A DNA stretch of 64,000 nucleotides from Alphaproteobacteria bacterium (GCA_050943575.1 JBMNPL010000001.1:23336-87335); one strand, 5' to 3'. Positions 56,348 to 63,014 are shown, counted from the stretch's first letter. Made by a program: numbers and translations. The notes: generated by a model from the sequence alone, not told the origin.

Positions 56348-57691
56348 TTAATCTTTCTTTATATTTTTCCACCATTTTTTAATACTATCGGTTAATTTAT
56401 TAAAATCTTTTTTAGCATCCTCGTAAAGCTGATTCGGTATTTTAACATCGCTAAACAATGCTTGACTTAATGCTGGTATTGCGTTCATAAACATTGCTAA
56501 AAATACACCCATCATTACAATTGTAATCAGGCTGTCATTATTCATCATCAATCCATCTATTAAAATTTTAGAATCGTTTTGAATAATTGATTGTTCTAAT
56601 GCGCTGGCACCTTGCCATTTACCAAATGCTGCGTTTAAAAATAAGATAGAAAATGCGGTAAATATACCCACCATCGCGATTCCTAATGTATTCTGAATCA
56701 CATCATTAATAATTCCTTTAATATTCTTTTTACCATCTGGTAATACCATCCATGTTTTACCGTCCGCATCTTGGAACAACCATGCAAGTAACATTAGAGG
56801 CAGCATAACCAAATCCATTCCTAATTTTATAAAAGTTTGTAAAAAATAAAGCGGTACCGGTAGCAGTGCAAAGAAAAATAAAACTATTATAAAAAGTCCT
56901 GCTAAAAACATAGCCACATTTGGAAAAATTGGAATTCCAAAAATAATTTTATGCATGTACTCATCATTAAATGCCATGTTCATAATAGTCCAACCAGCTG
57001 TCATACCAAGTCCAGTCATTTGATGAACTTGCCCCATTTGACATGCTAGATTATGACGAAGTTTGGGTGAAAAAGCCCCGTCTTTAGCCGCATTTTTATC
57101 CGCACTACTTGGATCCATAACTGCGGTTGCAACTAAACAAGATTCAAAAGAATTTTCGTTATTTATATCAGGTGCCATTTTTACATCTATTGTATGCGAA
57201 AGTGATAATCCGACATTAAAAATAGGTTCTACAGCCACCCCAGTTATAAATTGCGGCAAAGGGAAAGCTAATAATAATGTAATAAAAGTAAGTTTTACTA
57301 AATGTGTACCCAGTTTACCAGCGAAATTCCAAGCATCTGGAGATTTTGGATCCCCATCTATTCCCAAATATCCCTTTAATACTTCCCAGCCAAAATATAC
57401 GGCAGTCAAAGCGAAAGCCATAGGAATACAAACTTTGCCAATAGATGAGTAAATCCTTGGTAAAATATTTGATAAAACTAGCATTATATTATTAAACATT
57501 TCGCAAGCCCAGCAGCTTGAAAAGAAAGATAATGCATCAACCATATCAACAGGAACCATAGAACGATAAATTGAAAAACCTGCGATTGCTATACCACCCC
57601 CAATTGCACCGATAGCCAATGGTGGAATTGCCCCAGCAGAAAAAGGCAAGAAAGAAAGAAAGACTATCCAAAATTTTTTTAATTTGTTCAC
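56348..57691 (-). CDS. polytopic membrane protein P1, paralog array; tentatively VirB6/TrbL-like
   Basis: 447 aa with apparent GTG start, signal-peptide-like N-terminus, motif PQFITGVAVEPIF shared with P2/P3, at least 6 TM helices and Lys-rich C-tail (KKWWKNIKKD). Divergent from P2. Confidence 0.55.
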   Translation of the reverse strand: MNKLKKFWIVFLSFLPFSAGAIPPLAIGAIGGGIAIAGFSIYRSMVPVDMVDALSFFSSCWACEMFNNIMLVLSNILPRIYSSIGKVCIPMAFALTAVYFGWEVLKGYLGIDGDPKSPDAWNFAGKLGTHLVKLTFITLLLAFPLPQFITGVAVEPIFNVGLSLSHTIDVKMAPDINNENSFESCLVATAVMDPSSADKNAAKDGAFSPKLRHNLACQMGQVHQMTGLGMTAGWTIMNMAFNDEYMHKIIFGIPIFPNVAMFLAGLFIIVLFFFALLPVPLYFLQTFIKLGMDLVMLPLMLLAWLFQDADGKTWMVLPDGKKNIKGIINDVIQNTLGIAMVGIFTAFSILFLNAAFGKWQGASALEQSIIQNDSKILIDGLMMNNDSLITIVMMGVFLAMFMNAIPALSQALFSDVKIPNQLYEDAKKDFNKLTDSIKKWWKNIKKD

Positions 57692-57744
57692 AAGTACAAT
57701 TATATCATAATTTGAGAAAGTTTTTTATGTTATAATATTAAGAA

Positions 57745-59004
57745 GTGAGAAAAATATTTTTATTTTTATCATTTTTAATTTTACCATGCACCGCATATGC
57801 GTCATGGAATATTGTTGATGCATTAGATTTGTCCCCATTTATCCCAATAATTTTAGATGCATTTATATCTGTTGCTATGGCTGGATATGAATTTTTTGTT
57901 GGTAAGGGAGATGGTATAATTTATATTTTTGTTTGGGGTTGGTTGGCTTGGTTTATAGCTTCTTATTTAGTAAAGATGTATATCCCGCAAAGTTGGTTGG
58001 AATTTATTAATGCCAAGGGCGGACAAATGTGGGATAAGCCATCCGCGATTAAAATTTCCGAAGATGTGTTAAAGCCATGTATTCGAGGGATAATTGCGGC
58101 AGCTTTACTTTTGCCTATACAGCCTCAATACATTACAGGAATTATAGTAGACCCATTTTTAAAGTTCGGGGCGCTTTATACACAAAGTATTTCTGAAAAT
58201 ATTAATCAGATGAATTTAACAGCAGGAGTGTCAGAAGACAAAATAAAATGCCCATCAAATATAATAGAAAAAAAATATATTTCAGAAGAAAGTTGTAAAT
58301 TTTTAATTCAGCCAGTTGCTCAAATAACTCATGCAAATAATCAAGTAATAAAACGTGGATTAACTTTTATAACTAATGGATTAAAAGATTTAATGACACT
58401 TATGTTACACGGTGGGCGTGGTATTATGAATTTAATAACAGGTATATTTCTGGTGTTTACTTTTGTGGCTAGTAATTTCTTTATGGCACTTTTAATAATA
58501 CAAGGAATTTTCGAATTTGGTATGTCATTAATAATGTACCCTTTTAAAGTGTTAATGTTTGTTGCAAATAAAAATGAAAAAGGCTGGGTTAATCCTTGGC
58601 CGGCATTTAGTCAGATAATAGAAAGTCTTAAAAAGTTGGTAATTACAATGATTGCTTGTGTGTTTATATTGGTTATAAATTTAGCAGCCGTTAAAGCATT
58701 ATTTAATTTTGGTCAATCAACTTTTGTTGTTGCGGCAGGTGGTGCAGCATCCAGCAATGTTCCAGTTGTAGCAAATAGCCCGATGGGTTTTGGACAACAT
58801 TCAGTAATTTGGCTATCGTCAGTTTTAACCTTCTTTTTAATGTTTAAAATTTTTGAATTAACCAAAGAGCAATTACTGAAATATACAGGTGGTGGTGATG
58901 ATTTATATAAAAAAGCAACAGGTGATGCCATGAATGCTTGGGATAAAGCAAACAAATGGCGTAAGAATACTGTCAAAGTATTAGGATGGTTTAAAAAGAA
59001 ATGA
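57745..59004 (+). CDS. polytopic membrane protein P2, paralog array; tentatively VirB6/TrbL-like
   Basis: 419 aa with GTG start, signal peptide MRKIFLFLSFLILPCTAYA, motif PQYITGIIVDPFLKFG and Lys-rich tail. Stop overlaps the P3 start (ATGA). Confidence 0.55.
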   Translation: MRKIFLFLSFLILPCTAYASWNIVDALDLSPFIPIILDAFISVAMAGYEFFVGKGDGIIYIFVWGWLAWFIASYLVKMYIPQSWLEFINAKGGQMWDKPSAIKISEDVLKPCIRGIIAAALLLPIQPQYITGIIVDPFLKFGALYTQSISENINQMNLTAGVSEDKIKCPSNIIEKKYISEESCKFLIQPVAQITHANNQVIKRGLTFITNGLKDLMTLMLHGGRGIMNLITGIFLVFTFVASNFFMALLIIQGIFEFGMSLIMYPFKVLMFVANKNEKGWVNPWPAFSQIIESLKKLVITMIACVFILVINLAAVKALFNFGQSTFVVAAGGAASSNVPVVANSPMGFGQHSVIWLSSVLTFFLMFKIFELTKEQLLKYTGGGDDLYKKATGDAMNAWDKANKWRKNTVKVLGWFKKK

Positions 59005-61709: not shown

Positions 61710-61721
61710 TAAAAAATAAAA

Positions 61722-63014
61722 ATGGCTTTATTTAAATTAAATTTTCAAAAGAAAAATATATTGCACAGGCTTGTGTCGATTGCTTTTTGCTTGTTAGTTG
61801 TTATATTTTTATCAACCCCATTATATGCTGAAAGTAATACTCCCAATGTTGGTGATATTGCAGATTATGGTGTTTGGGCAACTGAAAATAATAAACAGCT
61901 TGTTATAAATAATATATATTCAGATATAGATACATTTTATACACCAATCGTTGATAATTATGTCCCTGTAGAAGCACGAGTAGGTAAATCACTAATTGGT
62001 GCATTGAAAATTATTGGTGATGTGTTACAACGTAGTTTATTTAACTTTATTCAAATATTTTTATTAGTTCTGTTCGCTTTTTGGTTGATGTTTGAAGCAT
62101 ATAATTTAATTAAATCTAATGGCGATGTAAAAAAAACAGCGATGGAAATTGTAAAAAAAACTATATTAGTTTTAATTTGGATTTGGGTTTTAAATAATGA
62201 TCCTGGAAAAATTTTTATGACTATATTTGGGCCGATTATTAGTGCCGGAAGTTATGCATCTGATTTAATTTTAAACTCTATTGCTGGTGCTGCGGGAACT
62301 AGCCTGCCAGACACTTGTGATGCTATACGAAATTTTATTAGCGATGATAGATATACAGCAGATTTAATTTGTATGCCGACACGATTATCTGGGTTCTTTT
62401 ATACTTGTATTTCAGCAGGATTTAAATGGATGGCTGCAGGTATTGGGCGTAGTGCCCTAACATTTATTGCTGGTGCGGTATTTGTAGTTATATTTGCTAT
62501 CAATATATGGAAATTTGCATTGTTGGCATTAGGTGTTATTGTTGATTTATTTTTAGCAATAATTTTATTACCATTTACCGCGATAAAAGAATGTTTCGGC
62601 CAAGGAACTAGTTTACAAGGTGTTGCAGGTAGTATATTTACAGCCTTTGCCGGATTATTTAAATCAGTTAGTTTAAATGATCAAATTCAACGATTTATCC
62701 GCGCAATAATTTATTTTATTGTATTATCTATAATGGCAGCAATTGGAGCAGCATTATTGGGTGGCGTAGTAAGTGCTGATTTATCGGCTGCTACACCATC
62801 AGTTCAAAGTGATAGTTTTATGTCTGTATTAATAGTCGGTTGCTTGGTGGCTTATCTGGTTTCTAAATCGGCAAAAATAGCTGAAGATTTAGGCGGAAAA
62901 ATAGATGACTCATTTGGTAAAAAAGTTCAAAATGATATAAAAAATCTTTGGGACAAGACGAAAAAGCAAGTTACAGATTGGCGAGAAATTTATAAAGAAC
63001 AAAAAAAAAAGTAA
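61722..63014 (+). CDS. polytopic membrane protein P5, paralog array; tentatively VirB6/TrbL-like
   Basis: 430 aa with signal-like N-terminus, multiple TM helices and Lys-rich C-tail (KEQKKK). Confidence 0.5.
   Translation: MALFKLNFQKKNILHRLVSIAFCLLVVIFLSTPLYAESNTPNVGDIADYGVWATENNKQLVINNIYSDIDTFYTPIVDNYVPVEARVGKSLIGALKIIGDVLQRSLFNFIQIFLLVLFAFWLMFEAYNLIKSNGDVKKTAMEIVKKTILVLIWIWVLNNDPGKIFMTIFGPIISAGSYASDLILNSIAGAAGTSLPDTCDAIRNFISDDRYTADLICMPTRLSGFFYTCISAGFKWMAAGIGRSALTFIAGAVFVVIFAINIWKFALLALGVIVDLFLAIILLPFTAIKECFGQGTSLQGVAGSIFTAFAGLFKSVSLNDQIQRFIRAIIYFIVLSIMAAIGAALLGGVVSADLSAATPSVQSDSFMSVLIVGCLVAYLVSKSAKIAEDLGGKIDDSFGKKVQNDIKNLWDKTKKQVTDWREIYKEQKKK

Follow-up and report, generated by a model that had tools for sequence, protein, structure and literature searches.

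The stretch of DNA analysed here, 64,000 nucleotides of one strand from an Alphaproteobacteria bacterium (GCA_050943575.1, JBMNPL010000001.1:23336-87335) to which we refer in its entirety as the window, contains an array of five consecutive open reading frames (ORFs), termed P1 to P5, which encode polytopic membrane proteins that are very probably related to the VirB6 proteins of type IV secretion systems (T4SSs). These genes are listed in Table 1 together with H174, an ORF of 174 amino acids (aa) downstream of P1. In the NCBI record, the region from H174 to P5 is located on a contig of 134 kb and carries the locus tags ACOX7D_00425-00450 (with P2 as ACOX7D_00435), and each of its genes is annotated as 'hypothetical protein'. 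A first-pass annotation made from the sequence alone had likened the array to the tandem VirB6/TrbL-like (rvhB6) paralogs of Rickettsiales, and much of its description of the locus was confirmed. This holds for the coordinates and lengths of the five large ORFs at 56348-63014, for the divergent transcription of P1, which is followed on its strand by H174, and for the lysine-rich C-terminal tails, with 6-10 lysine or arginine residues among the last 30. It equally holds for the position of the array next to rpmE, which lies beyond H174 and is followed by an inositol-monophosphatase gene (suhB), and to mraY, whose ORF starts at ~63066 past P5, with ftsW and murG next in the same genome. Other details required correction. 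P2 and P3 indeed overlap by an ATGA, whereas the gaps given as 4 and 13 nucleotides were recounted as 3 (P3/P4) and 12 (P4/P5). The periplasmic-loop motif ascribed to P1-P3 is exact in P1 (QFITGVAVEP) and P2 but approximate in P3 (RFITTVTFEP), and N-termini resembling signal peptides, which had been attributed to all five proteins, are found in P1, P2 and P5 but not in P3 and P4.

Table 1. Coordinates of the array, its signature motifs and other features referred to in the text.
Feature	Record	Position	Strand	Description
P1	window	56348-57691	-	447 aa, GTG start; of the VirB6-like paralogs, the most conserved and the closest to 'canonical'
P2	window	57745-59004	+	419 aa, GTG start; VirB6-like; Sec-type signal peptide, QYITGIIVDP
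P3	window	59001-60245	+	414 aa; VirB6-like, nearest to P1; no hydrophobic leader
P4	window	60249-61709	+	486 aa; VirB6-like; N-terminal transmembrane anchor
P5	window	61722-63014	+	430 aa; most divergent VirB6-like paralog; signal peptide
H174	window	55759-56283	-	174-aa ORF, downstream of P1
P1/P2 spacer	window	57692-57744		53 bp, AT-rich, divergent intergenic
CxxC of P1	window	57502-57513		residues 60-63, CWAC
CxxC of P3	window	59043-59054		residues 15-18, CWGC
CxxC of P4	window	60438-60449		residues 64-67, CFLC
rpmE, extended	window	55466-55777	-	103 aa, TTG start
ORF without credible Pfam match	window	35074-36081	-	335 aa
ORF without credible Pfam match	window	43131-44477	+	448 aa
ORF without credible Pfam match	window	44529-45266	+	245 aa
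ORF without credible Pfam match	window	54158-54694	-	178 aa
Coupling protein	L078	3999-6257	-	752 aa, VirD4/TraG
Coupling protein	L175	10001-12214		
ComEC-type gene	L175	1-709	-	DUF4131 + Competence
Two-transmembrane ORF	L083	4967-5227	+	86 aa, upstream of array
Two-transmembrane ORF	L178	1762-1977	+	71 aa, upstream of array
M23-TrbL fusion	L178	8479-12474		array member
Insert between P2 and P1	L013	7578-9957	+	two genes
Large signal-peptide protein	L114	10080-12629		
Large signal-peptide protein	L118	2018-4360		
Large signal-peptide protein	L125	2194-4377		
Large signal-peptide protein	L172	1242-4391		
Large signal-peptide protein	L126	1363-4338		
Large signal-peptide protein	L166	9476-12550		

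The five proteins are about 20% identical to each other, and BLASTP relates P1 to P3 (E 5e-14), P1 to P2 (8e-6) and P3 to P4 (1e-4). The relationship is extended by profile searches, in which a hidden Markov model (HMM) of the P1 group detects P3 with an E-value of 1.8e-24 in HMMER, and a superfamily HMM constructed from database relatives recognizes P3 (2e-93) as well as P2 (2e-26), P4 (2e-34) and P5 (4e-28), the latter three being outside its training set. Among the ORFs of the window, the family profile matches exactly these five. In a comparison of the profiles of ortholog groups with hhalign, probabilities amount to 95% for the pairs P1-P5 and P2-P5, 93% for P1-P4 and P4-P5 and 76% for P1-P2, whereas P2-P4 is not significant and the match of any group to FtsW, used as control, does not exceed 0.4%. 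The similarity goes beyond chance and identifies the five ORFs as distant but statistically supported paralogs.

All close homologs of these proteins originate from uncultured metagenome-assembled genomes (MAGs) labelled 'Alphaproteobacteria bacterium' or 'Rickettsiales bacterium' and from Candidatus Enterousia, which were sampled from the guts of humans, chickens, ruminants and termites, from digesters and from landfills, and which together correspond to the GTDB order Rs-D84. The genomes of this order are smaller than 1 Mb, encode neither respiration nor biosynthetic pathways and lack standard transporters, and the bacteria have been proposed to depend on a partner (PMC12306168). In species-representative genomes, a relative of P1 is encoded by ~265 stretches. 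The arrangement P5-P4-P3-P2 with the divergent P1-H174 was intact in all of the ~75 fetched loci that were long enough to contain it, with orthologs related 1:1 at 40-85% identity across the order, and the order of the block survives rearrangements of its flanks. A layout that is conserved 1:1 in ~75 species of Rs-D84 characterizes the array as an ancient fixed set rather than a recent amplification. The earlier phrase of a family 'amplified five-fold' is therefore inappropriate if taken to refer to a recent event, since each copy has orthologs throughout the order and a conserved signature of its own. By its pattern of conservation, the array is an ancient, fixed gene set under purifying selection. 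A tblastn search with P1 against 72,556 plasmids did not yield any match.

Certain records of the locus show peculiarities. In a termite-gut MAG of Rs-D84 (L013), two lineage-specific genes in the orientation of P1 are located between P2 and P1, encoding a secreted protein of 450 aa and a very cysteine-rich secreted protein of 345 aa, both without Pfam match or homolog in the other loci, which are possible cargo or accessory genes. Six records containing the locus (L002, L004, L005, L008, L039 and L043), including the 716-kb 'chromosome' OZ246409.1, are titled 'uncultured Muribaculaceae bacterium', which appears to be a taxonomic mislabel. In L084 (ENA ERZ2647912, coverage 1.6x), P2-P5, suhB and gyrA of the same organism are fragmented, most likely as a consequence of sequencing or assembly error and not of pseudogenisation, because the identical sequence is intact elsewhere (L085).

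The most conserved element of the family is a CxxC motif (CW[AGS]C or CFLC) with a following aromatic residue, whose conservation is at least 90% in distant relatives. The motif is found in P1, P3 and P4, whereas P2 and P5 are devoid of it. P1 contains two further invariant cysteines (Cys185 and Cys217) and an invariant tryptophan (Trp304) within the sequence LPLMLLAWLF. A tryptophan is also present in P3 of the window; within the ortholog groups, this canonical residue, which is essential in VirB6 proteins and comes after a hydrophobic helix containing a proline, is conserved only in P1 and not in P2, P4 and P5. Every paralog displays its own set of columns with at least 80% conservation.

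Neither Pfam nor NCBIfam contains an entry that matches P1-P5 or H174, and searches of PDB sequences with phmmer and hmmsearch, using P1, the profile of its orthologs and a profile of distant relatives as queries, returned no match or low-complexity noise. The relationship to VirB6 instead emerges from the predicted fold and from the comparison of broad profiles. A model of P1 obtained with AlphaFold2 from 41 orthologs is all-helical, with a predicted local distance difference test (pLDDT) of 68 and a predicted TM-score (pTM) of 0.60. When this model was compared to the PDB with Foldseek, the top five matches were all TrwI/VirB6 chains from the stalk of the R388 T4SS (probability 1.0, TM(target) 0.51-0.60, E ~1e-2). 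As modelled, P1 shares the VirB6-type helical fold of the solved TrwI structure. On the level of sequence, the P1-ortholog profile retrieved 250 representatives among 1.84 billion proteins. In a group of 57 distant relatives, 20 match the TrbL/VirB6 model of Pfam at E ≤1e-3, with two proteins, P0219 (32.7 bits) and P0231 (26.3 bits), passing its gathering cut-off of 25.9 bits, such that the model which fails to recognize P1-P5 does detect their remote kin. Further evidence was obtained from the alignment of a broad family of 108 sequences to seven plasmid VirB6 proteins (from R388, IncN, Pseudomonas, Xanthomonas and Xylella) with hhalign, which gave a probability of 95.4, an E-value of 1.7e-8 and a score of 67 over 129 columns, compared to 0.4-0.8% for reversed sequences, 0.2% for FtsW and 5.9% for MraY as controls. 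It pairs residues 258-415 of P1 with 141-269 of TrwI and superposes the LPLMLLAWLF of the former on the GPLFILALIW of the latter. We consider it highly probable that the family belongs to the VirB6/TrbL superfamily, based on the fold and on transitive and profile homology rather than direct Pfam matches. The label 'VirB6/TrbL-like' is upheld in this sense.

Within this superfamily, the proteins are distinguished by several features. Compared to VirB6/TrwI of R388 and Agrobacterium (PF04610), they are ~100-150 aa longer, contain the family-specific CxxC, have kept the tryptophan in P1 only and are present in five divergent copies outside a virB operon instead of a single one. DotA of the Legionella Dot/Icm system, a type IVB secretion system, is in contrast far larger (with 857 residues in the solved chain) and encoded as a single copy within dot/icm loci. 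Both TrwI and DotA assemble as central pentamers, which are thought to act at the inner membrane as the platform or protochannel of the machine (PMC12857230). Nine of the 57 distant relatives bear an M23 peptidase domain. An N-terminal M23 peptidase is fused to a VirB6-like domain in P0219, P0231, P0208 and a protein of L178, one of which also has a VgrG3-like C domain, such that a single polypeptide combines a peptidoglycan hydrolase with the channel or platform protein.

Arrays of such proteins are also found outside of Rs-D84 in three other lineages, with five paralogs in L083 (GC 30%), four in L177 (GC 37%) and four, including an M23-TrbL fusion, in L178 (GC 44%). They are chromosomal and bounded by housekeeping genes, without a recognizable ATPase adjoining. 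Their occurrence suggests that multi-paralog arrays recur within this VirB6 subfamily, as they do in Rickettsiales. The five copies of L083 all resemble P1 most, and hence do not show 1:1 orthology with P2, P4 and P5. The two-transmembrane ORFs upstream of the arrays in L083 and L178 recall VirB3 or VirB2 by size and topology, whereas the array of the window does not contain such an ORF.

A Pfam scan of ~46 ORFs of the window did not find any T4SS family, in agreement with the earlier statement that virB3, virB4, virB8-11 and virD4 are missing from the 64 kb. No T4SS core gene was seen in 10 kb past each end either, which brings the part of the source genome covered to ~84 kb, or up to a distance of 10 kb from the array in the ~80 species whose neighbourhoods were compared. 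In these species, the flanks of the array comprise H174, rpmE and suhB, the mraY cluster or, in Enterousia, uvrD, as well as an exonuclease and PBP1a. A contig of Enterousia (L078) encodes a VirD4/TraG coupling protein (type IV coupling protein, T4CP) ~1 kb past the block, with suhB between it and H174, whose assignment relies on PF02534 (2e-50), TraG-D_C and TrwB_AAD_bind domains. Used as a probe, this protein retrieved 126 metagenome relatives with 58-86% identity, two of which are located on array-bearing contigs at a distance of 31-34 kb (Ga0082212_10000107 and Ga0123353_10000169). A landfill sample containing a close relative of the window also contains the gene, on a separate 3.6-kb contig. 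The proteins, which are ~730-750 aa long and are also found in L095-L174 and L175, contain an intact Walker A motif in 70 of 74 copies, are labelled by NCBI as T4SS conjugative DNA transfer protein and have their best plasmid relatives among alphaproteobacterial T4CPs (32-34% identity, E down to 6e-78). Their genes neighbour rsmE, a pseudouridine synthase gene, a TPR protein gene, bamB, lpoB, a sigma-70 gene, der, yidC and lspA, and their location amid housekeeping genes therefore defines another isolated islet. The view of an array 'detached from its T4SS partners' is accordingly correct for the 64 kb, the 10-kb flanks and the ~80 species, but does not apply to the genomes of the clade, which encode a VirD4-type T4CP, while VirB4 and VirB8-11 were not seen in the loci covered.

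The surroundings of the T4CP gene (80 loci, so that two neighbourhoods per genome were compared in total) offered several other observations. Large ORFs of 780-1050 aa were considered as VirB4 candidates and rejected, because none has a Walker A motif in the proper position and the majority are secreted, cysteine-rich proteins; a faint VirB11-like match turned out to be RarA/MgsA. In several Rs-D84 genomes, proteins of 700-1050 aa with a signal peptide, often cysteine-rich and without homolog in the window, are encoded near the islet (Table 1), and these may be surface proteins or secreted effectors. A lipoprotein of ~410 aa without Pfam match and an LpoB-like protein are encoded downstream of the T4CP in many loci. 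In the landfill relative (L175), a ComEC-type competence channel gene is located ~9 kb from that of the T4CP, and these genomes may therefore also take up DNA.

H174 is a soluble protein without signal peptide that is restricted to the clade (47 matches) and that stays beside P1 where synteny breaks (L061 and L063). Its predicted fold resembles the periplasmic-binding-protein-like catalytic domain of prephenate dehydratases (PDTs), whereas its sequence is not similar to PDTs (6-14% identity), has no Pfam or NCBIfam match and does not include an ACT domain. Its linkage to P1 makes H174 a putative member of the array system, where it could serve as a cytoplasmic ligand-binding partner. A mechanical ORF list stretches the adjacent rpmE to a TTG start and into overlap with H174; in relatives, the called gene for L31 encodes 69 aa and starts ~65-85 nucleotides after H174. 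The P1/P2 spacer presumably holds the promoters of both genes. It contains promoter-like hexamers on both strands, the region not being enriched for such sites over shuffles, and promoter and terminator scans of the region were uninformative.

The remainder of the window is occupied by core housekeeping genes that are involved in transcription, translation and RNA processing (nusA, argS, pnp, truB, metG, a leuS-type gene and der), DNA maintenance and segregation (mutS, gyrA and parAB) and cell envelope and shape (mreB, lptD/F/G and bamB). Its GC content of ~32% is even, and that of the array resembles its surroundings. Four further ORFs do not have a credible Pfam match (Table 1), with no match at all for three of them and a chance-level match of the 178-aa ORF to SEO_N (E 0.038). 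The ORF of 335 aa is kept clade-wide beside a sigma-70 gene (cluster 7 in the T4CP loci).

In light of these results, we lean towards the interpretation that a T4SS-like machine, inherited vertically in Rs-D84 and encoded by genes dispersed on the chromosome, has its VirB6 module in the array. It appears at least equally plausible, and perhaps slightly more so, that P1-P5 cooperate with T4SS-type machinery comprising the T4CP, with which they would interact physically. Both VirB4 and VirB8-11 would in this case be encoded elsewhere in the genome. Several observations weigh against such a machine. The search for VirB4, VirB3, VirB8-11 and a pilin was negative in the window, the 10-kb flanks, the ~80 array loci and the 80 T4CP loci. 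To our knowledge, all known T4SSs have VirB4 as their signature component. The T4CP itself was not found in the ~84 kb of the window's own genome. The Pfam TrbL model did not match P1-P5 even at E ≤1, the confidence of the P1 model is moderate, and in hhalign neither the narrow P1 profile against TrwI alone nor the profiles of single ortholog groups against VirB6 gave significant results, owing to the low diversity of these profiles. The paralogs of the out-groups are nearest to P1, and 'five' may therefore not refer to homologous sets across lineages. Finally, the word 'secretion' does not occur in a published survey of the metabolism of Rs-D84 (PMC12306168), and a literature search for Rs-D84 or Enterousia in conjunction with secretion systems found nothing relevant. 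As for the missing components, VirB1-11 and VirD4 of R388, used as seeds in tblastn and phmmer searches of the window and all loci, yielded nothing, a weak negative because the same seeds barely detect the T4CP of the clade.

A distinctly less probable, though substantial, alternative assumes a machine that is independent of a T4SS, in which the VirB6 fold would have been co-opted for a stand-alone inner-membrane complex, for example an import or export channel or a platform for envelope assembly, that operates without VirB4 and VirB8-11 and that is either served directly by the T4CP or unrelated to it. It would account for arrays of 4-5 genes amid housekeeping genes without adjacent VirB4 or VirB11 in four independent lineages (Rs-D84, L083, L177 and L178), for the T4CP being the sole T4SS core gene seen in ~3 Mb of Rs-D84 loci, and for a near-invariant CxxC hallmark that is absent from descriptions of canonical VirB6; the lack of standard transporters in Rs-D84 (PMC12306168) likewise speaks for it. 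The absence of other components, however, is based on two neighbourhoods per genome and on R388 seeds that are nearly blind in this lineage. Moreover, all characterized VirB6 and DotA proteins act inside a T4SS (PMC12857230), and no function independent of one is known for a T4CP that is conserved and catalytically intact.

The resemblance to Rickettsiales, from which the first-pass annotation had started, could also reflect true orthology, with P1-P5 sharing a common ancestor with the RvhB6a-e or VirB6-1..4 set and having later been trimmed to the domain and parted from rvhB3-rvhB4. We regard this as improbable. The similarities are evident, as in both cases a reduced alphaproteobacterial genome maintains a tandem of 4-5 very divergent VirB6 copies under selection and, in Rickettsiales, T4SS genes reside in scattered chromosomal islets, the 'archipelago', with five RvhB6 copies of ~80% divergence being a hallmark of Rickettsia and their domain averaging 413 aa (PMC2653234), close to the 414-486 aa found here. 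With five paralogs of ~20% identity, the array of the window does constitute a tandem of at least four highly divergent VirB6 copies, and many of the MAGs carrying it are labelled 'Rickettsiales bacterium'. Yet the rvhB6 proteins are 'extended' to 668-1154 aa by hydrophilic flanking regions (PMC2653234), so that the present proteins are far shorter, as had been remarked, and consist of the domain only. One of them is in addition divergently transcribed. The Rickettsiales array directly follows rvhB3-rvhB4 (islet A), and an equivalent position after virB3-virB4 is common to all members of that order (PMC2653234), whereas it was never encountered here in ~80 species. The host lineage is classified as a separate order, Rs-D84, and none of the 20 distant relatives whose source was checked is a named Rickettsiales VirB6, the sampled proteins coming from other uncultured Alphaproteobacteria. 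The out-group arrays without 1:1 orthologs of P2, P4 and P5 suggest repeated lineage-specific duplication. What remains of the proposed rvhB6 resemblance is the tandem divergent array, whereas a specific kinship is not supported.

It is very unlikely that P1-P5 form an unrelated, transporter-like polytopic family whose resemblance to TrwI is an artefact of modelling or composition, as could be argued from the missing Pfam, NCBIfam and PDB sequence matches, the pLDDT of 68 and Foldseek E-values of ~1e-2; the hhalign comparison of the broad family with plasmid VirB6 and its controls were described above. Least credible of all is that the array is what a decaying integrated conjugative element has left behind, as might be suspected of VirB6 genes, which normally reside on mobile elements, in isolation from other transfer genes, or that it arose by recent tandem amplification. 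Both readings are effectively refuted by five intact ORFs with 40-85% identity to 1:1 orthologs and many columns of at least 80% conservation, by an unremarkable GC content, core-gene flanks and the failure to find a match in plasmids, and by the ~20% identity between paralogs. The two options initially offered, a detached rvhB6-type array or a distinct uncharacterized family, are not mutually exclusive, since the proteins form a distinct unannotated subfamily and at the same time are relatives of VirB6.

In the dispersed T4SS-like machine that we favour, P1-P5 would be compact, domain-only versions of VirB6 that form its membrane and periplasmic core. Its genes would lie dispersed over the chromosome, similar to the 'archipelago' of Rickettsiales, a VirD4-type coupling ATPase encoded elsewhere would work with P1-P5, and the assembly would presumably export macromolecules to a partner cell or import them from it. 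Because each paralog is preserved 1:1 with its own signature and the tryptophan is kept only by P1, the proteins probably assemble as hetero-oligomers instead of being redundant copies. That they combine into a hetero-pentamer of P1-P5 is a tentative idea, which we think is rather unlikely to hold in this specific form. Still more doubtful is its extension, where the VirB6 platform or protochannel would be an obligate hetero-pentamer with P1-P5 as its non-equivalent protomers, a compact counterpart of the Rickettsiales copies, in a minimal secretion or uptake machine with genes scattered on the chromosome that is driven by the VirD4-like protein, perhaps without a recognizable VirB4, and essential for a life that depends on the partner. 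A suggestive analogy is provided by Patescibacteria, where a T4SS is essential in epibiotic representatives (PMC12857230). As in Saccharibacteria, an ultrasmall genome and dependence on a partner would coincide with a T4SS-type machine and an array of subunit paralogs that are divergent in sequence and conserved in structure. Their multiplied subunits, in contrast, are six VirB2-like pilins encoded in a contiguous locus with VirB4 in a monoderm, whereas in the case described here it is VirB6, with dispersed genes, in a diderm.

Collectively, the array defines a compact, CxxC-bearing and unannotated VirB6 subfamily that, although not categorically new, is present as a fixed five-gene set apart from other T4SS genes in an abundant and uncharacterized order of gut bacteria, and that is missed in its entirety by current Pfam and NCBIfam models. 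Among the core components of T4SSs, VirB6 is understood least, and the 4-5 divergent copies of Rickettsiales are an unexplained case. The same multi-copy phenomenon is now encountered in another genome-reduced alphaproteobacterial group, one abundant in the guts of humans and animals, where domain-only proteins, a fixed copy number and 1:1 orthology across hundreds of species make it feasible to probe a hetero-pentamer by co-evolution and multimer modelling. For organisms with ~850 genes and without a known route for nutrients, the assignment gives about six 'hypothetical' genes an initial functional context, and the array together with the VirD4-like gene makes a T4SS-type apparatus a candidate for the interaction with their partners.

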